NCBI GenBank assembly: GCA_031372065.1
Contig: JANMKN010000404.1
Coordinates: forward strand, 1 to 15,704
Direction of reading: 5' to 3'
Origin: Abditibacteriaceae bacterium
GTDB lineage: Bacteria > Armatimonadota > Abditibacteriia > Abditibacteriales > Abditibacteriaceae
Length of the DNA: 15,704 bases
In this document: positions 1,177 through 10,370 of the stretch, one piece after another
Layout: each line of letters opens with the position of its first letter
Numbering within the stretch: the first letter of the stretch is position 1
The notes under the pieces: generated by a model
What the model was told of the DNA's origin: nothing
Seen by the model: only the letters and a program-made list of their open reading frames with translations
The model's database searches: none
Made by a program: the position numbers and the translations under genes

Positions 1177-1324
1177 AAAACCCTTATAGGATAAGGCGAA
1201 ACTCGCATTTTTCGCCTCAAGTTTTATCACTTTTACGGTCCCGACCGGATTCGAACCGGCGGTCTCCTGCGTGACAGGAGTTGTGACAACTTCGCTTCGT
1301 CGCCCCTTATGGCATAAGGGTTTT
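1177..1324. repeat. Pair of inverted palindromic motifs AAAACCCTTAT-N3-ATAAGG flanking the att site
   Basis: 1177-1196 is AAAACCCTTAT-AGG-ATAAGG. 1304-1324 is CCCTTAT-GGC-ATAAGGGTTTT, the same motif in reverse orientation. Confidence 0.75.
1236..1278 (-). tRNA. 3' half of tRNA-Asp(GTC): displaced fragment forming the att junction, not a functional tRNA
   Basis: Minus strand reads C-CTGTCAC-GCAGG-AGACC-GCCGG-TTCGAAT-CCGGT-CGGGACC-G: anticodon loop with GTC, T-arm, 3' acceptor strand and discriminator G. The 5' acceptor strand, D-arm and most of the 5' anticodon stem are absent. Confidence 0.92.
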
Positions 1325-1411
1325 GCGCTTTTTTCCGCCCTTCGTTTCAAAAAAGCAGGAGAATAAATCTTTGATTCAACTTCTGCCCCATTCGTTTAAT
1401 TTCACGATGCG

Positions 1412-2401
1412 CTATAAACCCAGCAGATCGTCAATCCGTCGCCGCAATTCCATTAGTGTTGCGCGCGGCGCCGTGCCGCCCTCTTTCACCCATTGCTGCA
1501 CCGTTTCGAGATTGGAAAGCGCGCCTTGTGCGGCGGCGGCGGCGTTCTGAGTGGCTTCTTTTTTGGAGACGGTTGTTACCTGCTGTCCACGCGATACAGG
1601 AGCGCTTCCTTGTTCAGCGGCACGGCTTTGGCGCGATTGCGTTTCAGAGTCCGGTGCCTTTTGACTTTCTAACTGGAGATCGTGCTGGGCAGCGCGTTCG
1701 GTAATGATGCTTTGCAGCTCGCGCACAGGCGCGCCATGCTGGGCATATTCCATCAGCTCGCTGCGCAGTGATTTGTCGGCTACCGGACGCAGTGTCAAGG
1801 CGTGCGTCATCAGTTCAGGGTTCTCGGCGGCAAAGGTTTGCACATCCGGCGGGCACTTGAGCAGATTGACGCGGTTTTCAATGTAGGATTTATCCACATT
1901 GTATTTTTTAGCCATCGTGCGCAGGCTGAGATTCTCGTCGCGCATTTCGGCTTCAAAGGCGTGGGCCTGTTCAATGGGCAAATGATGCTTGTTGTGGATG
2001 CTGGTGCGCAGCGCCGCCGAGCGCGCGTCTTTGGCGCTCAGGTCATCAAGGATAATCGGCAGCCAGTCGTAATCATCTTTTGTCGCGCGGAACTTGCGCC
2101 CCCCATCCCAGACGAGCAGGGTGGCGTTCTTGCGCACTTTGCCGTCTTTGCCGGTGCTACCCGACGCCCAGCGGCATTTGAGCGGCTCCATGATGCCACT
2201 TTCCAAAAGGCCGTGTTTCTTGGCGCGCCAATCGTCAATATCGGCGCGCAGCGATTTGAGGTCTTCCTCGATGATGACGGTGCGCGGCTGGCCGGGGTCG
2301 AGTTTGAGGCGCGAGGGCGGCGCCAGCAGCACGCCAAAGTCGGGCGAGAAGCGCAGGCCGTTGTCGAGAAGTTCGGTGCGGTCAAGATTGAGGCGGATCA
2401 T
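1412..2401 (-). CDS. ParB/Spo0J-like protein with divergent CTP-binding motifs
   Basis: PGQPR (box I), GIMEPL, VWDGGRKFRA (box II; canonical GERRxRA), LPIEQAHAF and HTH SLRTMAKKYNVDKSYIENRVNLL. ATGA overlap with the upstream gene. Confidence 0.85.
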   Translation of the reverse strand: MIRLNLDRTELLDNGLRFSPDFGVLLAPPSRLKLDPGQPRTVIIEEDLKSLRADIDDWRAKKHGLLESGIMEPLKCRWASGSTGKDGKVRKNATLLVWDGGRKFRATKDDYDWLPIILDDLSAKDARSAALRTSIHNKHHLPIEQAHAFEAEMRDENLSLRTMAKKYNVDKSYIENRVNLLKCPPDVQTFAAENPELMTHALTLRPVADKSLRSELMEYAQHGAPVRELQSIITERAAQHDLQLESQKAPDSETQSRQSRAAEQGSAPVSRGQQVTTVSKKEATQNAAAAAQGALSNLETVQQWVKEGGTAPRATLMELRRRIDDLLGL

Positions 2402-3279
2402 ATGATTGACGGCGGCGACTCATTAAACACTTTCAGATAAAGACCGATCATCTCTGGGGCGGCCTTTATGATACTTGGCAGCGCGTAATAAATTGCATCA
2501 ACAACACTCTTAACTGGGCTTGGTTTTACTACCTCTGCTTCGATAATATCAACCAATTTGGAGTTGGCTATCCGCTCATCTTCAGGAAGTGCACTCACCG
2601 CTTGGCGGATGCTTTCCATCAAGGCGGCAATCTCTTCAATTCTGGGATTGATTTGTTGATTGGCATAGCCCGTGTTGTCGTTGCCTGTTTGTAGGAGGCC
2701 GATGGCACTCCCGGTTACATCAGAAATGTTGATGCTGCGGTTGCTGTTGTCCATGTTGTTGGTAATGTATTGAACGGTCATTGCATTAAAAAAGTGTGTC
2801 GGCTGGTTTGGGTGGCGAATGGCATTTTCAATTTCATCCGCTCCCTGTCGGGTCAAAACTACATTTGGGCCACCTGCCGTGTGTATTTTCATCAAACCGC
2901 GCTCTATTAAAAAGAAAAACGCATCATTAGCATCCTCTCTCGACCATTTCTGCTCGTCAATGATTTTTGACCAAGAAGCTGGCTTTTGAGGATCTCCCCC
3001 CGACTCATCGTAGATTTTGCGCAAGGCTATAAGGCGGCGGTTGTCACGTTGGGCCACCAGTTGAGCATCGGCGCTGCGCGGGATAAAGCCCATGATGACA
3101 TATTGAGGCATGGTAGATGGGTTGCCGCTGGCTTCCCTTAGGTCAACCAGAGGGCTTCCTCCTAACTCTTCGGCCTCTTCAATGTCACGCGGATTTACAA
3201 AAACTTCCCCGATTCCATCCACCAAATACGTCCCGTCTTCCTGTTTGCCATTAACAACTTGGATCCAATCAATACGCAT
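2398..3279 (-). CDS. Hypothetical protein (293 aa): winged-helix-like core, N/G/Q-rich segment, helical C-terminus
   Basis: Start reassigned to ATG 3279 because AGGAGG (3285-3290) lies 5 nt upstream; the ORF is open to 3453. wHTH-like LRKIYD...AFFFLIERGLM...LTRQG. Confidence 0.7.
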   Translation of the reverse strand: MRIDWIQVVNGKQEDGTYLVDGIGEVFVNPRDIEEAEELGGSPLVDLREASGNPSTMPQYVIMGFIPRSADAQLVAQRDNRRLIALRKIYDESGGDPQKPASWSKIIDEQKWSREDANDAFFFLIERGLMKIHTAGGPNVVLTRQGADEIENAIRHPNQPTHFFNAMTVQYITNNMDNSNRSINISDVTGSAIGLLQTGNDNTGYANQQINPRIEEIAALMESIRQAVSALPEDERIANSKLVDIIEAEVVKPSPVKSVVDAIYYALPSIIKAAPEMIGLYLKVFNESPPSII

Positions 3280-3645
3280 TGAAGCCTCCTGAGAAATTTT
3301 TGGCATTTTCCATTTCTTACAATCCTTAGCTAAAACAGTAATGGTGTGGGCATACCCATTCGATTTCCACTCACCCCGGTGTCCCAAAAGATACCAATGA
3401 ATCAAGGCTTTCGCAGACTCAAGCATTGTTGAGTGGTCAGGGCAATCAGTCATACGCGGAGGCCCTGTGAAGAGTATTTTAAATTCATGGGTTTCCTCTG
3501 GCTACAATCAGCAGTTCACTTTTATCCTGCGTGTGCTGCGCACACACAAAATAAACATTCATCATTTCACAAAATTAAGTTTTCTATTGGAACTTCCGTT
3601 AGTGGTCGCCGTCGGCCACTGAGATAAAATTCCTCAAGAGGATTT

Positions 3646-4491
3646 ATGCCCACCACACCGTTTTGGAGTTCTGATCGAGCAACGCTGTATCATGGAGACG
3701 CCAAAACCGTTCTGGCATCACTTCCCACAGAAAGTGTGGATTGTATCGTCACGTCTCCGCCTTACTACGGGCAGCGCGATTACAAGGTTAAGGGCCAGAT
3801 TGGACTTGAAAAAACTCCTTTTGAATTCATAGAGTCTCTGGTTGATGTTTTTGGCGAAGCGCGCCGGGTGCTAAAACCTACCGGTGCCCTGTGGGTGAAC
3901 ATCGGTGACACCTACTGGAGTGGAAAGGGCAAACCGACCCAGCCAGATAATAAGCAGAGGAATCGCCGGTTTGAGCGCCCCCAAGACAAAACCAGTTCCC
4001 ACCCCATTTGTAAGCCAAAACAACTCCTTTTGGTGCCACACCGATTTGCCATCGCTATGCAAGACGATGGATGGGTTGTGCGCAATGATGTCATTTGGTG
4101 CAAACAAAATCCAACTCCTGACCCTGCAACAGATCGTTTAGCCTCCGCCCATGAATTCATGTTTTTCTTCACCAAGCAGGCAAAAGGCTATTACTTTAAC
4201 CGGCGAGCCGTTAGGGTTCTCTGCGCCGACGGAAAATCCACGAAGAACCCGCCCACTGTTTGGAATCTAAAAAGCGCGCCCACTTTCAAAAAACACATCG
4301 CTCCTTTTCAGGAAGAGCTTTTGCGCATCCCCATCAAGGCTACACTGCCCATCAACGGTGTGCTGCTGGATCCATTTTGCGGTAGCGCAACAGCCCTCAA
4401 GATGGCCTTAGCCAGAAGCAAGAGAAGTCGCGCCGTCGGCATCGACATTAGTGAAGACTTCTTGAATGAGGCAAAGGGCTTGCTGATCTAA
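3646..4491 (+). CDS. N4/N6 amino-DNA methyltransferase, beta class (SPPY suggests m4C)
   Basis: Motif IV TSPPY precedes motif I VLLDPFCGSAT. Also RVLKPTG, IWCKQNP, HEFMFFF. RBS GAGGA upstream. Confidence 0.95.
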   Translation: MPTTPFWSSDRATLYHGDAKTVLASLPTESVDCIVTSPPYYGQRDYKVKGQIGLEKTPFEFIESLVDVFGEARRVLKPTGALWVNIGDTYWSGKGKPTQPDNKQRNRRFERPQDKTSSHPICKPKQLLLVPHRFAIAMQDDGWVVRNDVIWCKQNPTPDPATDRLASAHEFMFFFTKQAKGYYFNRRAVRVLCADGKSTKNPPTVWNLKSAPTFKKHIAPFQEELLRIPIKATLPINGVLLDPFCGSATALKMALARSKRSRAVGIDISEDFLNEAKGLLI

Positions 4492-6411
4492 TTAATTCTC
4501 CTCGTTCTCCAGCGATAGACTACCCTGAGTTGCGATGTCATCGGGTGGAGTCTCATCGTCATCTTCATCGAAGTTCAAATCGTCTGTGCCCCAAAAATTT
4601 GGAAAGCTGAGTTGTCCATTCATACCCTTGTTTCCAAATTCGGGGAGCAGAGCAAGAGCGCCATCAATCGTGATCTTTTGAATTGCAACTCGGTTGTTAT
4701 TGCAGAAGGGATGAACAATCCGACCATTGTAAATAGCGGTTGGACCACCCTTGCCCACCTCGTGCTTGTGATCATACTGAACATTTTGAGTCGCAATCAA
4801 ACGCCCATTGCATATTTCGCAAGTAGGTAAAGTATCAAGAATGGTTTTCACCATAATCTCGTCTTTCATGCCTGGCGGGAAATTTCTGGCTGATGAAACT
4901 TTTTCATCCTCTATCCGGCCACTCTGACTCTTAGAACTTGTTTTTGTTAAAGTCTCAAGAATAATTGTGTGAGCAGCTTCAAATTCAGGTGTATTGATCT
5001 TGCCTGAAAATTCAATTACCTTTTGCAGCAAAGCATCAAAATAATTGGCGGTCTGTCGAGTTACCTCAGAGCCAGATCCAATTTTTCGCGTTATTCTTTT
5101 AATAATACGTTGCTTATGCTGAATCAATACATCTTCAAATGAGCCGCGATAAGCAGAAAAACTAATTTTTCGGGTATGAACATCTGTGTCGGAACCGAAG
5201 TTGATCCAATACAACATACCGTAAAGAAGATTGCGGACATAATCTCCTTGAGTATTGTAGTAATACAGGAGGGGAGCCGTGCTTAAGGAGCGCGGAGACG
5301 GACCCGCCAAACTATTCAAGGCATCAATGGTTTCGCTGGTTAGTGACTGGGCATTAATGATTATTTGCGTAGACGAATCCGATTTGTCGGCCTTCATAAG
5401 CGCCTCAGTCTCGACTTTCTGCCCTTTCTGCCCTTTTACAATGGTCAACACCTCTGCTGTGTATAATGGGCGCAAGTCGGGTCGAGCAGCAGATATACCC
5501 AAAAGAGGTCTTAAGGCGTCCTGTTTTACGTTCGCGGTCAATGGCTCAGGCGCAAAAAGCAAATTGGAGATGACGCGCGATTTCTTTAAAACTTCATCGG
5601 TAGTTGAATGCATTGGGGCAGGGACATCTACCTTTGGCCAACAGCGGTCAGCATGTGTTGGGTCTGCGATAGACATTACAAGTCGCGCAAAACTTGACTG
5701 TCTATTTTCAACAAGGATGGTTTCCCAGTCACTAAGAGGTGCACCAGTGCGATTAATCTTTACGAAAGACTTTTCGGCAGTCTCGTAATTTCCCACCACC
5801 CACTGAATAAAAAAACCAATGTCGGAGCCGCGCCACCTTCGAACTTTATTTGCTAACTTCTGTTCGCGCAAGCTAAGTTCGCCACTTACTGCTTCGCGTC
5901 CATGTTCACGCTCAACTTGACGAAATTTTGAATCCGCCATCCAGTATTCACGCGCCTCTCCGATACTTTTTGCCGCCAACAACTTGCGCACTTGTGTTGC
6001 TGCCTCGCGAGCCGCCACCAACTCTGCAGGAGTCATGTTTCTCGTGCAGCCTTCACCCCAATCATCTTTTAGCCAAGCCAATAACACCGAAATCCGATGG
6101 CCACCATCCAAAACATATATGAAGTTATCAGGACTCATCCAAAGAATTACGCTGGGAACAACCTGCTCATTTACAATGGATTCAAGTAAGTCCGCGCAAA
6201 CCGTCGGCGACCACGCCTGAGTAGTTCTTTGAAAATCCGGTTTGCGCAATTGCCAAACGAGGTCAGGATCGTTGTTTAGAGCATACAGGCGCAACGAAGG
6301 GAAAGGAGTGGGTTGATTGTCCCCCGCTTCAGTAATGCTTTTGTAAAGCAAAGGCTCTCTGGGAATCAGATGGTCCAGATAAACCCTGACCGACTGGTTT
6401 GTAACACTCAT
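4492..6411 (-). CDS. DUF262 (GmrSD N-terminal, ParB/Srx fold) plus C-terminal HNH endonuclease
   Basis: KPDFQR...WS...LLESI...PSVILW...VLDGGHR and F-VKINRTG-APL motifs. C-terminal CEIC...YDHKHEVGKGG...NGRIVHPFCN HNH signature and an acidic tail. Confidence 0.88.
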   Translation of the reverse strand: MSVTNQSVRVYLDHLIPREPLLYKSITEAGDNQPTPFPSLRLYALNNDPDLVWQLRKPDFQRTTQAWSPTVCADLLESIVNEQVVPSVILWMSPDNFIYVLDGGHRISVLLAWLKDDWGEGCTRNMTPAELVAAREAATQVRKLLAAKSIGEAREYWMADSKFRQVEREHGREAVSGELSLREQKLANKVRRWRGSDIGFFIQWVVGNYETAEKSFVKINRTGAPLSDWETILVENRQSSFARLVMSIADPTHADRCWPKVDVPAPMHSTTDEVLKKSRVISNLLFAPEPLTANVKQDALRPLLGISAARPDLRPLYTAEVLTIVKGQKGQKVETEALMKADKSDSSTQIIINAQSLTSETIDALNSLAGPSPRSLSTAPLLYYYNTQGDYVRNLLYGMLYWINFGSDTDVHTRKISFSAYRGSFEDVLIQHKQRIIKRITRKIGSGSEVTRQTANYFDALLQKVIEFSGKINTPEFEAAHTIILETLTKTSSKSQSGRIEDEKVSSARNFPPGMKDEIMVKTILDTLPTCEICNGRLIATQNVQYDHKHEVGKGGPTAIYNGRIVHPFCNNNRVAIQKITIDGALALLPEFGNKGMNGQLSFPNFWGTDDLNFDEDDDETPPDDIATQGSLSLENEEN

Positions 6412-6431
6412 AGCTTAAAATACCGCCTCAC

Positions 6432-6470
6432 TTAATCAAACACTTTCTCCAGCGCGCCGCGACACAATGC
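6432..6470 (-). repeat. Repressor 3'-end copy 4 (ALCRGALEKVFD*)
   Basis: GCA TTG TGT CGC GGC GCG CTG GAG AAA GTG TTT GAT TAA. 27/33 nt match to the repressor's last 11 codons; 20 nt upstream of the DUF262-HNH ATG. Confidence 0.9.
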
Positions 6471-6472
6471 TC

Positions 6473-6871
6473 TCACGCGAACGCTTCGCCCAGATTTGGC
6501 TCCAACAACTGCCGAATGCTTGCCTTGAATTCCGTCATATCCATCGGCTTGCCAAAAAACGCATCGGGTTTGCAGCGGGCCATCTCATCACGGCGTGTCT
6601 CCTGAAACCCTGAGAACACAACGATCTTGGTATCGCTGCGCACCTCTCTGGCGATGCAACACACATCGGCCCCGGTGCCATCGGGCAAGTCCCAATCGAT
6701 CAAAACCAAATCCACACACCCGTCTTGCAAAGCAGCGCGGGCCTCGGCTACCGATCCGGCGCCGCGCACAACATAGCCCATCAATCGCAGCACCGTAGCC
6801 GTGAGAATCACGAGTTCGTCGTGGTCATCAACGACAAGGACATGGGTAATGTTGTTGGATGATTCAAGCAT
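6473..6871 (-). CDS. Stand-alone response-regulator receiver (CheY-like) domain
   Basis: VLVVDD, DLVLIDWDLPD (phospho-Asp), FSG and GKP motifs intact; no output domain. Confidence 0.93.
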   Translation of the reverse strand: MLESSNNITHVLVVDDHDELVILTATVLRLMGYVVRGAGSVAEARAALQDGCVDLVLIDWDLPDGTGADVCCIAREVRSDTKIVVFSGFQETRRDEMARCKPDAFFGKPMDMTEFKASIRQLLEPNLGEAFA

Positions 6872-6876
6872 GAGCC

Positions 6877-6912
6877 TCAGCCAAAGACTTTTTCCCGAAT
6901 GCTACGGCACAC
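6877..6912 (-). repeat. Repressor 3'-end copy 3 (VCRSIREKVFG*)
   Basis: GTG TGC CGT AGC ATT CGG GAA AAA GTC TTT GGC TGA. 25/33 nt match; 5 nt upstream of the receiver gene ATG. Confidence 0.82.
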
Positions 6913-6941
6913 CTGAAGCTGCTTCAGGAAGCAGCTTCAGG
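6912..6941. repeat. Perfect 14-bp inverted repeat with nested palindrome
   Basis: CCTGAAGCTGCTTC-AG-GAAGCAGCTTCAGG. Contains the stop of 6937..7164 and abuts copy 3; no U-tract. Confidence 0.85.
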
Positions 6942-7164
6942 AACCTTTATTCAAATCCAAGGCTCCCAAATGTTCGATGATGGCCGCAAACTGAGTTTCG
7001 GCCTCTTCTTTTGTTAACCCACTTGCCAGTTCGGTGTGATCTGCATAAAGGCCATAGCCCACCCAAGGGCCATTCTGGTTGTCGGGATCTGTTTTCCCTT
7101 CAATGGAAATCACTTTAGCGTGTATCAAATTGTAAACCTTGCCATCCGCTGCTTTTACCCACAT
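6937..7164 (-). CDS. Hypothetical protein (75 aa)
   Basis: Strong RBS AAAGGAG upstream of the ATG; protein-like beta/alpha pattern. Confidence 0.8.
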   Translation of the reverse strand: MWVKAADGKVYNLIHAKVISIEGKTDPDNQNGPWVGYGLYADHTELASGLTKEEAETQFAAIIEHLGALDLNKGS

Positions 7165-7188
7165 TGCTGTCTCCTTTGTTGGTTTTCG

Positions 7189-7371
7189 TTACGGGAGAAT
7201 CTCGTTCGGAAAATAATAGCCTTTGATGCGTCCGATCACAAACGCCGCAATCGCAATCCACAAAAAATTACGCCGCAACCAAACAGCCCACAAGCCAGCG
7301 CGTTCCTCCAGCGAGACAACGCGTTTTCGCTGTTTGAGATTTGTGAGTGGGTCAGGAATGGGCGGTAGCAT
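7189..7371 (-). CDS. Small putative membrane protein (60 aa)
   Basis: Hydrophobic segment FLWIAIAAFVIG; ATG 2 nt after the stop codon of copy 2. Confidence 0.55.
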   Translation of the reverse strand: MLPPIPDPLTNLKQRKRVVSLEERAGLWAVWLRRNFLWIAIAAFVIGRIKGYYFPNEILP

Positions 7372-7373
7372 CT

Positions 7374-7406
7374 TTAATCAAAGACTTTTTCCAGCACACC
7401 GGAGCA
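7374..7406 (-). repeat. Repressor 3'-end copy 2 (CSGVLEKVFD*)
   Basis: TGC TCC GGT GTG CTG GAA AAA GTC TTT GAT TAA; 28/33 nt match. Confidence 0.9.
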
Positions 7407-7449
7407 AAACACTTTGCATCATCGTCAAGCATTTGTTACGCTTTTTTTT

Positions 7450-7737
7450 ATGAGTAACGATGTTGAAACCGTAGCCCCACAAGCTCTCCCAAACGCTTCT
7501 CCAAGCGCTCCTAAAACCGTGGCTGGAACCGTCGCTGAAATGGCACCTGCCGATTTTGAAGCCTTGTTAACGCGCGCACTATGCAATGCCATGAGTTATG
7601 CCGCGTTTCGCTTTGAAGAGGAGCGTCAAACGGAATATGGATTTACATTGCGCGAGCGCACTAACACAAGGCATCAGGAAATTCATGAAAGCTGGCACAC
7701 CTTATTAGACGGCGACAAGTCTGAAGTCACCGTTTGA
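7450..7737 (+). CDS. Hypothetical protein (95 aa), convergent with the adjacent gene
   Basis: Open frame from ATG 7450 with plausible composition. No clear RBS; 11-nt 3' overlap with 7727..7945. Confidence 0.45.
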   Translation: MSNDVETVAPQALPNASPSAPKTVAGTVAEMAPADFEALLTRALCNAMSYAAFRFEEERQTEYGFTLRERTNTRHQEIHESWHTLLDGDKSEVTV

Positions 7738-7945
7738 ATTGGTGTCCTGACACGCTGCCCTGCGGCGTCTCCCGATCCCTCTCGCGCACAACTTTAGTTT
7801 CGGCTTCAATCGTTGTTGCCAAAGCCTGTGCGATTTGATTAAGCCCTTCCGCGCTGACTTTGGGTGCCATTGCCTGACACGCTCCTCGCACCGCTGCCAG
7901 TGCTTCTAATTGCGATTCATGTAACTGCTTTGAATTTTCAGCCAT
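7727..7945 (-). CDS. Hypothetical helical protein (72 aa)
   Basis: RBS AGAGGAG lies between the stop of copy 1 and ATG 7945; MAENSKQLHESQLEALAAV... Confidence 0.7.
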   Translation of the reverse strand: MAENSKQLHESQLEALAAVRGACQAMAPKVSAEGLNQIAQALATTIEAETKVVRERDRETPQGSVSGHQFKR

Positions 7946-7959
7946 ACACAAACTCCTCT

Positions 7960-8050
7960 TCAATCAAACACCTTCTCTAAAACGCCGCGACACACCGCCA
8001 CGGCACACAGCCACGACGCGCGCCGATTCGACATCCTTGCCGAAATGGTA
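7960..8050 (-). repeat. Repressor 3'-end copy 1 (YHFGKDVESARVVAVCRG / VAVCRGVLEKVFD*) with internal 13-nt duplication
   Basis: 7960-8001 encodes VAVCRGVLEKVFD*, with 8 differences in the last 33 nt, all synonymous. 7997-8050 in another frame aligns with repressor FVLGPTMKQARIVAVCRG. Confidence 0.93.
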
Positions 8051-8320
8051 AATTAAAATACGCAGAAATGAGAACGCCTGCCCCCATCGCTTAACGCCCG
8101 CACTTACGCAGTGGCTTGGGCTTTGAGCGGACGTGTGTTTTCACAACAACCGTTTTCGGCCCCGGCTTCTTCGTAGTGCGCACGGGACGGCAAGTGGTTT
8201 TTGGCATTAAATCACCTCTTTCCGGCAGCGGTTGCCACCGGGCGCGTAGCAGTAACAACTACTGGCCGCAAGAGAGTTTTAATGGAAAGACAGGCGTTCT
8301 CATTTCTGCATATTTCAGCT
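8051..8320. repeat. 270-bp unit bounded by long inverted repeats
   Basis: 8056-8080 AAATACGCAGAAATGAGAACGCCTG versus the reverse complement of 8291-8315, AAATATGCAGAAATGAGAACGCCTG (24/25). Extends to 26/30 over 8051-8080 and 8291-8320. Confidence 0.92.
8091..8207 (-). CDS. Small basic peptide (38 aa) MPKTTCRPVRTTKKPGPKTVVVKTHVRSKPKPLRKCGR
   Basis: Below the ORF-track cutoff. Strong RBS AAAGAGGTGAT just upstream of ATG 8207, TAA at 8091-8093; fits inside the inverted repeats. Confidence 0.7.
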   Translation of the reverse strand: MPKTTCRPVRTTKKPGPKTVVVKTHVRSKPKPLRKCGR

Positions 8321-9315
8321 CAATCAAACACTTTTTCCAGCACACCACGGCAGACCGCCACGATTCTGGCTTGCTTCATGGTTGGCCCCAGCACGAACCC
8401 CGGATAGTCTGGGTTGTTGGCGCGCAATCGCTTTTTCTCATAAGCCTTGAGGGTTTGCACTACGCGCCCGTCTTTAAATTCAATTTCGGCCAGCACAATA
8501 TCGCCGGTGCGCGGCTGCCGTGGAAACTCATTCAAGGGCGTGAGTAAAATATCTGCGCCGTTTTGAATGGACATACGGTCACCATCCTGACTCATGCTCC
8601 ATCCAATAACAGTGGCTACGCCCGAATGAGGCGTGGCTTTTTCGGCCAAGCGGCCCCAAACTTCAACTTCGCTGGTATCGCCGATCATTTCGACAATATT
8701 ATCCAGCTCATCTAACGTGAATCCCTGCCCCGCACTAACCACCATATTGCGTGGCACCTTTTTCATTAATTGTAATGCCGGAATACGCGGCTTTCGCGGC
8801 TTAAATCCGTGTTTTTCTAAATCTTCAAAGAAAGTAGATTTCTTCTCTTCGAACGCTTCATCAATCATCCGACGGATGCGCGCCTCTTCTTCAACATCTA
8901 AAGGCTTCTTGGTTTTCTGTGGCTTTTCGGCGGGCGCTGTTAGTTCCAGATCGGCACCCTGAGATTGCGACTGCGATTGGCTTTGCGTGTCGGCTTGCAG
9001 GTAAAGGCTTATTGCTACTTGTGCCATTTCATTCGTGTCAAGATTCGTCTCAGATTTCCGAGCCTTCATCCGCGACCAAAGGTCGTCAGGAACGCTGGCC
9101 GACTTGCGCATATCGCGGTCTGTAATAAATAGGCGATGTTCAATCGTGTGAGGTGTTTTTAAATACCTCTCGAAGGCGCGACGAATAATAGACGCAACAG
9201 GAATATCAAGCTCTAACGCGTGATTGACAAGTGCTTGTCCCAATTCGTCCGAGAGATATACGTCTCGGATGCTGCGTTTCCCCTCTGACTGTCGCGGCAT
9301 TAAAAGTGTTGTCAT
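8320..9315 (-). CDS. CI/LexA-like repressor: two N-terminal ribbon-helix-helix-like units plus a C-terminal S24 autopeptidase
   Basis: VSAG (Ala-Gly scissile site), VIGWSM (Ser), TLKAY (Lys), LRANNPDYP. N-terminal repeats DVYLSDELGQAL...ASIIRRAFERYL and SASVPDDLWSRM...NEMAQVAISLYL. Divergent from the early operon. Confidence 0.85.
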   Translation of the reverse strand: MTTLLMPRQSEGKRSIRDVYLSDELGQALVNHALELDIPVASIIRRAFERYLKTPHTIEHRLFITDRDMRKSASVPDDLWSRMKARKSETNLDTNEMAQVAISLYLQADTQSQSQSQSQGADLELTAPAEKPQKTKKPLDVEEEARIRRMIDEAFEEKKSTFFEDLEKHGFKPRKPRIPALQLMKKVPRNMVVSAGQGFTLDELDNIVEMIGDTSEVEVWGRLAEKATPHSGVATVIGWSMSQDGDRMSIQNGADILLTPLNEFPRQPRTGDIVLAEIEFKDGRVVQTLKAYEKKRLRANNPDYPGFVLGPTMKQARIVAVCRGVLEKVFD

Positions 9316-9330
9316 GATGGTGCGTTCTTA

Positions 9331-9366
9331 TTTTACGCTTCGTGCAATTCGTGCAACGTCGTAAAA
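9331..9366. promoter_or_regulatory. Candidate operator
   Basis: Tandem TTCGTGCAA (9339-9347, 9348-9356) bracketed by inverted TTTTACG/CGTAAAA. Confidence 0.45.
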
Positions 9367-9389
9367 CACCAACAATATACGATAAATAA

Positions 9390-9401
9390 AAACATTTGTT
9401 C
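9390..9401. promoter_or_regulatory. Candidate LexA (Cheo-type) SOS box
   Basis: Minus strand GAAC-AAAT-GTTT fits GAAC-RNRY-GTTY. Confidence 0.45.
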
Positions 9402-9408
9402 TTATACC

Positions 9409-9436
9409 TTGCAAACTATCTAATATGTTGTAAAAT
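9409..9436 (+). promoter_or_regulatory. Candidate sigma70 promoter for the rightward early operon
   Basis: TTGCAA, 16-nt spacer, TAAAAT in the AT-rich divergent intergenic region. Confidence 0.55.
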
Positions 9437-9496
9437 AACGAGTAATTACGCAAATAAAAGCGCGCTACGCGGTCTTTACACAAGGACAAAACCAAA

Positions 9497-9961
9497 ATGG
9501 CAAACAAAACACACGACGTAACAATGAAATTGCACCCTGAAGACGAAAGCAGAATTGTCTTTCAGCGCGGCACAGAAAGTCGCGTTTTCGGGATTCTGCC
9601 CCACGGCGACAATGTTTTTGTGGTGACCATGCCAAACGGCAGTGAGCAGACCATTTGCCGCAAAATCCAGCTTTGGGGCTATCTCTGGCATTGCACCAGC
9701 ACAGGCGGCGTTTTGCGCGAATTTCACCCCTCCGAAAATCGCACCGACGAAGCCACCGGCGATGTGCGCGCCGTCTACGCTGTGCTTTCTTGGTTTCATT
9801 TGCGCGCCGAGTGTCGGTGCGGCGGCGGCAAGGTTTCCAGCATGGAAGAGTTAAGCAAGCGTGCCGAAAACTTTGAAAATCAAATGAAGCGCATTGAGCC
9901 TCAAAGCACTTTGGCTGCTGATTTTTGCGCCAAATACAACGGGCAGCGCATTACCAATTAA
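9497..9961 (+). CDS. Hypothetical protein (154 aa), first early gene
   Basis: RBS AAGGA upstream; no family recognised. Confidence 0.75.
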   Translation: MANKTHDVTMKLHPEDESRIVFQRGTESRVFGILPHGDNVFVVTMPNGSEQTICRKIQLWGYLWHCTSTGGVLREFHPSENRTDEATGDVRAVYAVLSWFHLRAECRCGGGKVSSMEELSKRAENFENQMKRIEPQSTLAADFCAKYNGQRITN

Positions 9962-9971
9962 AGGAAAGACT

Positions 9972-10202
9972 ATGGCCTCGAACGAACCATTAATGACAAC
10001 TCAGGAAGTGGCAGACTGGTTAAGATTTCACCCCGCCACAATTACGCGAATGGCGGGCGAAGGTGAACTTCCTGCTATTCGCACTGGTGGCGTTTGGCGC
10101 TTTCGCCGCGCCGACATCGAAGCGTATTTGCAAGGCGGCCAATCGCAAGCCGCGCCGCTCACGCGCGCTGAAGAAGCCGCCGAAACCGCCAATCGCGGCT
10201 AA
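9972..10202 (+). CDS. Excisionase-family HTH (HTH_17/MerR-like) DNA-binding protein
   Basis: LMTTQEVADWLRFHPATITRMAGEGELPAIRTGGVWRFRRADIEAYL; RBS AAGGA before ATG 9972. Confidence 0.92.
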   Translation: MASNEPLMTTQEVADWLRFHPATITRMAGEGELPAIRTGGVWRFRRADIEAYLQGGQSQAAPLTRAEEAAETANRG

Positions 10203-10283
10203 TTGAGAAGGTGTCATGTTGCGATTTAGCCACCTTATCAACAAAACAACGCTCGTCTGGCCCGGACGTAACAACGGGCAAAG

Positions 10284-10315
10284 AAAAACCCCGGCGCGTT
10301 ACGAGCGCACCGGGG
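10284..10315 (-). terminator. GC-rich hairpin with adjacent A-tract (U-tract on the minus strand)
   Basis: AAAAA-CCCCGG-CGCG...GCGCA-CCGGGG. Confidence 0.35.
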
Positions 10316-10370
10316 CGTGGACACAAATCCACGAATTATTTTCCTCCAAACGGAGAAAGGACACAAACCA

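Follow-up and report, generated by a model that had tools for sequence, protein, structure and literature searches.

In the parts of PMC3967940 that treat them, orphan rhs-CT and cdiA-CT modules downstream of full-length genes are described as displaced fragments that keep a conserved coding stretch and have no start signals, and this shared stretch, 522 bp long, can recombine with the main gene. Here we describe a comparable arrangement behind a phage repressor gene of an Abditibacteriaceae bacterium (GCA_031372065.1, contig JANMKN010000404.1). The window, by which we mean this entire 15.7-kb contig (15,704 nucleotides, nt) from a metagenome-assembled genome of 410 contigs, holds one end of a prophage in which four orphan copies of the repressor 3' end are stacked behind the intact gene. 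We consider, with a probability of about 0.65, that these orphans are untranslated 3'-end relics of other CI/LexA-like repressor alleles, that each probably came in linked to the cargo gene now behind it, that they were stacked by later incoming segments, and that they serve as patches for exchange.

The likeness to rhs/cdiA, as far as that source describes those loci, is that truncated main-gene ends are stacked downstream, co-oriented and without start signals, each with its own partner gene. The window indeed has four co-oriented, startless orphans with a partner gene after each. What it does not have is a variable functional tip that could be re-fused to the main gene, as the orphan is the invariant CRGVLEKVFD. 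Whereas the rhs/cdiA orphan, in the same description, carries the variable toxin tip, here only the conserved 11-13 codons (about 33-45 nt) are kept and the variable part consists of separate cargo genes. The main gene here is a phage repressor, and recombination between main gene and orphan was not observed, unlike in the rhs/cdiA parallel as reported in those parts.

A second parallel is prophage e14, which on inserting into icd leaves a 163-bp pseudogene icd', and prophages and islands at tRNA genes do likewise, according to the portion of PMC6379469 that deals with them. Here too a second gene 3' end lies beyond the inserted DNA and the gene stays intact as the incoming DNA supplies the end; the tails bracket every unit between 8358 and 6432, and the tRNA-island version is present in this very prophage at 1235-1278. 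The e14-type elements described there carry their own integrase and a defined core, whereas the units of this array are single small genes, four of them stacked, and none of the cassette genes (38, 72, 95, 60 and 75 amino acids (aa), the receiver domain and the GmrSD-like gene) matches a recombinase in Pfam or PHROG.

Integron cassette arrays offer a third comparison. The window resembles them in its promoterless, co-oriented cassettes of one or two genes, a short recurring joint, one likely promoter, defence-like cargo and reassortment between two arrays; it differs in that the contig has neither IntI nor attC-type hairpin inverted repeats, and in that the joint is coding sequence. Cargo expressed in the lysogen from behind the repressor is also familiar from lambda cI-rexAB and from prophage defence hotspots. 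In the same way, accessory or defence-like genes (a GmrSD-like nuclease and a methylase) lie directly downstream of the repressor here, in a region that varies among the window, a relative prophage (L009) and a second prophage of the same genome (C115). What sets the window apart from the first two parallels is that only the conserved end is stranded, that the payload is separate genes and that four stubs lie behind a phage repressor. A literature search, mostly without full texts and without supplements, turned up no description of cassettes marked by stacked repressor 3' ends.

Silent divergence of the repressor 3' ends

The window contains five co-oriented repressor 3' ends, with stops at 8320 (the real one), 7960 (c1), 7374 (c2), 6877 (c3) and 6432 (c4):

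8320-9315, minus strand: resident repressor, 331 aa, its N-terminus putatively ribbon-helix-helix-like and its C-terminal domain CI/LexA-like (S24), ending in IVAVCRGVLEKVFD and stop
8320-8358, minus strand: resident functional tail, the last 12 codons and the TGA stop
7960-8046, minus strand: orphan c1 (copy 1 of the original prediction), reading VAVCRGVLEKVFD and stop from 7998 to 7960; stop TGA
7374-7409, minus strand: orphan c2, reading (K)VFCSGVLEKVFD and stop; stop TAA
6877-6912, minus strand: orphan c3, reading VCRSIREKVFG and stop, the most diverged orphan; stop TGA
6432-6464, minus strand: orphan c4 (copy 4 of the original prediction), reading CRGALEKVFD and stop; stop TAA

The original prediction, made from the letters of the window, was that the tails diverge mainly at synonymous sites and so come from different functional repressor alleles. 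Its codon strings proved exact. Over the last 33 nt, c1 (7992 to 7960: TGT CGC GGC GTT TTA GAG AAG GTG TTT GAT TGA) differs from the resident end (8352 to 8320: TGC CGT GGT GTG CTG GAA AAA GTG TTT GAT TGA) at 8 of 33 bases without a single amino-acid change, and the Val codon directly upstream adds a ninth silent difference (GTG/GTC). In c4 (6464 to 6432), five of the six changed bases are silent, including the change of stop from TGA to TAA, and one replaces Val by Ala. The stops alternate between TGA and TAA as had been noted, being TGA in the repressor, TGA in c1, TAA in c2, TGA in c3 and TAA in c4. The other two orphans are less clean than c1 and c4, with path-averaged counts of 3 silent and 2 replacement changes for c2 and of 3.5 silent and 4.5 replacement changes for c3. 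Between any two tails, 7-13 of 36 nt differ.

That such tails are not chance strings is indicated by an 18-nt degenerate tail pattern, which at up to three mismatches finds six sites in the window, namely the five tails and an unrelated one at 1361-1378, against 0.28 expected; six sites were reached in 0 of 200 shuffles. Neutral decay was simulated from the resident 33-mer in 200,000 trials for each weighting of transitions to transversions. Eight changes with peptide and stop intact, the pattern of c1, arose in 0, 0 and 1e-5 of trials, and six changes with at most one residue altered, the pattern of c4, in 0.0025-0.0089. The simulations thus bear out the view that neutral decay of a local duplication would not give this pattern.

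Probable origin in other repressor alleles

The orphan nearest the repressor retains more than the tail. Upstream, c1 continues as FGKDVESARVVAVCRG, which adds about 14 codons whose frame has been shifted by a 13-nt repeat: the remnant FGKDVESARVVAVC lies in another frame and is joined to the tail via an imperfect 13-nt tandem repeat (8014-8002 and 8001-7989), which we read from three frames and which alignment with MAFFT left unresolved. Of the 16 residues compared, 12 agree with the homologue P0004 and 9 with the resident repressor, so the remnant is closer to another allele than to the resident one. Some of the apparent replacements in c3 and c4 are likewise, on the evidence of the aligned homologues, natural variants of real family members: the Ala of c4 is found in P0008 (CRGALERVFD), the Ile of c3 in P0005 and its terminal Gly in P0007, P0011 and P0013.

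Selection on the tail as protein, the source that the silent bias requires, is evident from its conservation across real repressors. A word-index search over 5.8 billion proteins found only three repressor homologues (45-51% identity), and all three share an identical C-terminal stretch of 12 residues, AVCRGVLEKVFD. A full HMMER search over 1.84 billion cluster representatives gave 33 matches at E<=1e-3. In 25 of these the tail segment was recognised by pattern, with Cys first in 22 of the 25 and a consensus of CRGVLEKVF; across the wider family the consensus is C-R-G-V-(L/V)-E-(K/R)-V-F-x. Tail conservation, the c1 remnant, the natural variants and the silent bias together support the proposal that the tails derive from different functional repressor alleles.

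The assignment of the resident protein as a CI/LexA-like repressor was approached by profile and by structure. Its match to Pfam S24 (PF00717; E=0.0014, 18.7 bits) is under the curated cut-off of 23.3 bits, and S24 is matched at E<=0.01 in 7 of 15 members of the repressor family. PHROG gives PHROG 4 'transcriptional repressor' (5.4e-6) and the Arc-like PHROG 6506 (6e-4), and a sequence search of the PDB with the repressor gave nothing at E<=0.01. A structural model of moderate confidence (mean predicted local distance difference test score, pLDDT, 66.7; mostly 70-80 in the C-terminal domain) was compared with known structures using Foldseek. The cleavable fragment of lambda repressor took ranks 1 and 2 (2hnf/2ho0; E 1.5e-4, probability 1.00, target template-modelling score 0.62), and the lambda CI-RecA complex 8gmu and LexA entries were also matched. 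On the basis of this model the C-terminal domain is predicted to have the S24 beta-fold, for which the fold match is clearer than the profile match, and the tail residues form its last beta-strand and C-terminal turn. An alignment of 15 members shows Lys290 and Gly196 (of xSA/CG) without variation and Ser240 (of GWSM) nearly so; by analogy with LexA and CI, Ser240 and Lys290 are candidates for the Ser/Lys dyad, and Gly196 for part of an Ala/Cys-Gly cleavage site. For the N-terminus, RHH_1 and RHH_3 were each matched in 1 of 15 family members, and fold matches covering about 100 residues were to small DNA-binding chains of the F relaxosome and DndE.

A second array in the same genome

Another contig of the same genome, C270 (L023), carries a further array that lacks a repressor. 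The genes and tails there are, in order, an apparently frameshifted PLD-like gene, a first tail T1' (GCRGVPEQAFD and stop), a 64-aa open reading frame (ORF), T2', a 60-aa gene (86% identical to that of the window), T3', a 103-aa zinc-ribbon ORF, a decayed T4', a split receiver gene (91-98% identical) and an 87-aa ORF. The 60-aa and response-regulator cassettes therefore occur on C270 in a different order and with different neighbours than in the window. The receiver cassette common to both is 6465-6874 in window coordinates, 91-98% identical, and its exact limits are the c3 stop and the Cys codon of c4; c4 itself begins exactly at this Cys codon, the point where the similarity to C270 ends.

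Breakpoints also lie inside tails. Between c1 and T3' there are eight differences in the first 21 nt and two in the next 33 nt (Fisher p=0.009); the two share the tail end, the ribosome-binding site and ATGGCTG, and different genes follow each. Between c2 and T2', 12 of 15 nt differ, then 0 of 23, and then 29 of 180 in the ORF. Given this reshuffled array, and similarity that starts or stops at or inside tails, it seems likely that the tails also act as crossover points. The C270 tails themselves are damaged: T3' has a 2-nt deletion, the 5' half of T2' cannot be aligned, and T4' has no stop. The 60-aa gene there keeps the 3' part of a tail, and the tail before the response-regulator gene is decayed and stopless. 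This damage has the look of unconstrained relics.

Three further observations concern C270. The PLD/Nuc-like nuclease gene before the array (about 1100-1444) seems frameshifted, as judged by eye. The receiver gene is split by a 1.33-kb element (2492-3825) whose terminal inverted repeats are 55 nt long (96%) and which is flanked by a 7-nt duplication, GTCCTTG; the element encodes no transposase, and its 300-aa exported protein matches CarboxypepD_reg weakly. Lastly, at 4163-4324 an 18-nt unit repeated nine times (96% matches) adds LEPNLG repeats to the receiver C-terminus, where the window copy has a single unit.

How the array may have formed

In the sequence of events that we favour, a cargo gene would once have stood directly behind a working repressor and been read from the repressor transcript, its start 2-20 nt past the stop. 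Later segments, each made up of a repressor end and new cargo, would then have recombined in at the same place, leaving the older stub and its cargo stranded downstream. The entry step could have been by homology-anchored illegitimate joins, or by deletions between tandem or co-resident prophages. Once in place, a tail and its adjoining ribosome-binding site, about 33-45 nt in all, would serve as a short homology patch through which cassettes are exchanged, lost and reordered. From the arrangement we infer how the array formed, in what order its units arrived, that the repressor promoter drives the cargo and that the tails still recombine today. The distances from each orphan stop to the next minus-strand ATG are 14 (c1), 2 (c2), 5 (c3) and 20 nt (c4).

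Relatives of the prophage point to the same stretch as a place for cargo. L009 shares with the window the repressor and a ParB-like backbone; between these, its cargo is wholly different, with a Ser/Thr kinase and zinc-ribbon proteins among the products, and begins with an ORF whose start is 5 nt past the repressor stop. C115 (L024, 2858-11435), the second related prophage of the same genome, has a different, 222-aa S24 repressor, followed in order by PIN, a 111-aa ORF, DUF4041-T5orf172, a ParB-like gene and a large serine recombinase, and no tail copies were found behind its repressor. As the cargo varies between the window, L009 and C115, the stretch from repressor to ParB is a cargo hotspot. 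Separately, stretches of the C115 early genes show 71-82% DNA identity to the window, and an identical 99-nt stretch lies at the C115 contig end.

The cargo of the window (GmrSD-like nuclease, methylase and receiver protein) is probably expressed in the lysogen. Read as relics, the tails make the array a readable record of a temperate phage in a barely studied lineage building up cargo behind its repressor, and orphan repressor ends become a practical marker that delimits cassettes and shows which genes were once in first position. If the tails are real crossover points, cassette exchange would need only about 33-45 nt of conserved coding sequence; if true, this would be relevant to a long-standing debate, in which phage mosaicism is put down either to conserved linkers or to random joins.

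Several observations weigh against this account. No donor allele was matched, the relative DNA compared being L009 alone, and the gain in identity on going from the resident tail to the L009 tail is slight (27/36 to 30/36 for c1, 28/36 to 29/36 for c4). The tails show no gradient of decay along the array away from the repressor. C270 could derive from another strain or another member of the bin. The 5' limits of four of the five well-defined orphans (c2, c3, c4 and T1' of C270) fall together, 11-13 codons upstream of the stop, which is unexpected if illegitimate joins are random and hints at a preferred site or at selection for length. In homology-facilitated illegitimate recombination one end is anchored in homology and the other joined illegitimately; here the anchor would be the repressor or upstream phage genes, and a truncated resident gene end would be left. 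Taken alone, that process predicts neither the clustered 5' limits nor breakpoints inside tails. Silent sites, too, are less free than expected. The codon TTT is kept in 9 of 9 tails and GAT in all 8 that keep the Asp, at local usages of 0.61 and 0.55, and the seven codons preceding TTT GAT vary freely among the window, C270 and L009 tails. Between the window and L009 repressors, codons at identical residues agree at 8 of 12 positions in the tail and 46 of 141 in the body (p=0.026). The invariant last codons and this codon identity imply that the tail is to some extent constrained or exchanged as DNA, something for which a model of relics alone has no need; the pattern suggests the translation start region of the next gene, or a preferred recombination site, as candidates for it. 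A role of the tail core as an operator or 'stoperator' was considered and rejected, the core being absent from the intergenic region between repressor and early genes (9316-9496).

Alternative explanations

The same points can be taken further. It is conceivable, though we regard it as speculative and unlikely, that the last 11-13 repressor codons with the ribosome-binding site form the docking joint of a phage-borne, integron-like platform, by which promoterless defence or cargo genes are drawn singly into the repressor operon of the lysogen, stored as an array and reshuffled at the joints via an unseen recombinase or through short homology alone, and whose arrays can outlive the phage, as C270 would illustrate.

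Also unlikely, though kept alive by the observations on clustered limits and silent sites, is a dedicated site-specific cassette system, in which tail and ribosome-binding site would be an attachment site (attC/attI-like, or of the kind that rebuilds a 3' end) and a recombinase encoded elsewhere would move promoterless cassettes in and out at the repressor end. Such a system would account for tails that all have one orientation, a uniform 33-45 nt and 5' limits clustered 11-13 codons before the stop, for breakpoints inside tails and for an array on C270 away from any repressor. The core TTTGATTRA is invariant and has five matches in the window (four tails and one other) against 0.43 expected; moreover, the prophage border itself uses a tRNA-Asp 3'-end repeat and the C115 relative has a large serine recombinase. 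However, a Pfam scan of 28 window ORFs, all cassettes included, found no recombinase (the contig is only 15.7 kb and a gene beyond its ends is possible), and the tails have no inverted repeat or common fold. Conservative site-specific exchange would also keep the coding arm on its own repressor, and so leaves the coding-type silent bias of the orphans and the allele-specific remnant of c1 unexplained.

Translation of the tails where they lie, as coupling leader peptides or as C-terminal extensions of the upstream protein by readthrough or frameshift, would place the selection on their codons in situ, and it is what the original prediction named as its own undoing. Some features are suggestive: c1 lies inside a 24-codon ORF with an ATG; the GTG from which c4 might start shares bases with the stop of the response-regulator gene (GTGA; 6464-6475); only one TGA stands between c3 and the 75-aa ORF, which share a frame, and a strong perfect 14-bp hairpin follows that TGA (6877-6941); and the last 18 nt of c2 with AGATG are identical in C270 (23/23 nt). 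The c3 read-across and the c4 GTGA overlap could be coincidences or remnants of coupling signals. Against this, no ORF of at least 25 aa terminates at any orphan stop, and c2 has in-frame stops three and five codons upstream of its first tail-like codon. Possible starts are inconsistent: counted back from the stop, c1 has an ATG at 24 codons, and c2, c3 and c4 have GTGs at 12, 11 and 14 codons. No start codon or Shine-Dalgarno spacing is common to the orphans. Orphans of both arrays are frame-broken or stopless, as the 13-nt repeat in c1, the 2-nt deletion in T3' and the lost stop of T4' show, and the 5' halves of C270 tails are far more diverged than the adjoining genes (12/15 nt vs 29/180). 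Furthermore, the 12 tail residues are invariant in real alleles (the close homologues), yet varied in three of the four window orphans. Nor do the tails have an internal inverted repeat or a common fold: z scores of the five tail regions were 0.5, -2.7, -0.1, -3.6 and 1.2, of which -3.6 stems from a separate hairpin at 6912-6941. With no shared start signal and with frame-breaking relatives, conserved leader peptides were not found, and in-place translation of the orphans is quite unlikely.

Origin of the orphans as local duplications of the resident end, by slippage or unequal crossing-over followed by neutral decay, would suit direct repeats at one locus, and the 13-nt tandem repeat in c1 shows that slippage-like events occur; it is nevertheless strongly disfavoured, and very improbable in our estimate, by the decay simulations (at most 1e-5 for c1, 0.002-0.009 for c4) and by a c1 remnant nearer another allele. 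An assembly or binning artefact, with repeats collapsed or contigs mis-joined at tails, is equally remote: the genome is a 410-contig assembly and Logan contigs are interrupted at 6494-6842 and around 7227-7255, places where variants like those of C270 compete, but independent contigs of this kind span c4 (1249-6494), c3 (6842-7255) and c2, c1 and the repressor end (7227-10364) with 0 differences, the best-holding run being possibly the source sample of the assembly, and tails that differ from one another at 7-13 of 36 nt are too divergent for repeat collapse. These contigs come from three DNA runs of one study, possibly the source sample, and confirm the local assembly only; no RNA run was listed alongside them. 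They show no tail-to-tail deletion joint, and as contigs drop rare variants this has no bearing on whether deletions occur.

Searches for donors and relatives

Further alleles were sought in phage, metagenome and genome data. For 6400-9400, blastn found nothing similar among 50,697 phage records. In viral contigs, the repressor and two family alignments found 0, 0 and 1 locus, the last (L034) being a provirus record that ends at the repressor stop, and neither the GmrSD-like cargo protein nor the degenerate tail pattern had a match there. A search for short proteins carrying the tail also found none. Across 27 genomes of the family, the repressor gave only weak matches (29-36% identity), and across 401 genomes sampled from the phylum none at E<=1e-10 besides the window itself. 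The DNA of the array, outside this genome, had only two chance-level matches of 33-35 nt in the family.

In metagenome contigs the degenerate tail pattern gave three matches. One is L009, which is real. We read as chance matches both L007, antisense inside a response-regulator gene, and L008, whose frame is closed about 20 codons upstream and which has no repressor-like sequence before the match. Genome contigs, searched with the stop widened to TRR, gave 13. Of these, one is the antisense chance match of L007, one failed the peptide-motif scan, and 11 hit an unrelated internal motif ending in W, picked up because the stop in the pattern had been widened.

This internal motif was seen as the peptide GALEKVFDW in ten contigs with Fimbriimonadales, Fimbriimonadaceae, Fimbriimonas, Chthonomonas and Armatimonadetes titles (L010-L013, L016-L020 and L022). 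It is preceded by YG in nine of them and by FG in one, and an Acidobacteriota contig (L021) reads FGVLEKVFDW. The protein family looks unrelated to the repressor.

Layout of the prophage and its cargo

The remaining features of the window, from the prophage border to the repressor, are:

1235-1278: copy of the 3' part of a tRNA-Asp gene, 44 nt, probable prophage attachment-site repeat
1412-2401, minus strand: ParB-like gene, 71% protein identity to the L009 ParB-like protein; conserved cargo-region end
2398-3453, minus strand: 351-aa ORF, part of the conserved cargo-region end (1412-3453)
3646-4491, plus strand: N6/N4 DNA methyltransferase (Pfam 4.2e-39; MTase_II 8e-83), within the cargo region
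4492-6411, minus strand: GmrSD-like cargo gene, 639 aa, DUF262 N-terminal domain and HNH
6473-6871, minus strand: receiver-only response regulator, 132 aa, cargo (PF00072 6.6e-16); ATG 5 nt past the c3 stop
6912-6941: perfect 14-bp hairpin between the 75-aa ORF and c3 (z=-3.6), with no T-run after it on the minus strand
6937-7164, minus strand: 75-aa cargo ORF, familyless; TGA stop in frame with c3
7189-7371, minus strand: 60-aa cargo ORF, probably a membrane protein; ATG 2 nt past the c2 stop
7450-7737, plus strand: 95-aa ORF of no family, convergent with the 72-aa ORF (11-nt overlap)
7727-7945, minus strand: 72-aa cargo ORF of no family; ATG 14 nt past the c1 stop, preceded by AGAGGAG
8056-8315, minus strand: first unit behind the repressor, 260 bp, with inverted repeats around a 38-aa ORF

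The copy at 1235-1278 is 100% identical to positions 2415-2458 of another contig of the genome, C231, where ARAGORN places a tRNA-Asp (GTC) at 2415-2490, and in all three runs contigs diverge to either side of the copy, their loose ends lying at 1235/1236 and 1278. With the probable attachment-site repeat here, the cargo array sits at the prophage end. L009 shows 83% identity to the window over 1235-1370.

Among the cargo, the GmrSD-like gene matches PF03235 (8.4e-11), HNH (0.0037) and phrog_29172 (6e-58), with its ATG 20 nt past the c4 stop. The DNA of the 60-aa gene is 86% identical to C270 1786-1968, and the N-terminus of the 75-aa ORF weakly resembles that of the C270 87-aa ORF.

Rfam gave 0 matches, the window has no tRNA gene, and promoter- and terminator-like sites in it are not above those of shuffled sequence. 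Divergent from the repressor lie plus-strand early genes rich in helix-turn-helix proteins. On its other side, in the first unit, the inverted repeats are 25 nt long (8056-8080 and 8291-8315) and 96% complementary. The enclosed ORF (8207 to 8094) encodes a very basic protein of 38 aa with a good ribosome-binding site; it has no Pfam family, and there is no second copy of the unit elsewhere in the genome. As RNA, the unit could fold into a long-range stem and so insulate the repressor message; alternatively, it could be a small inserted element.

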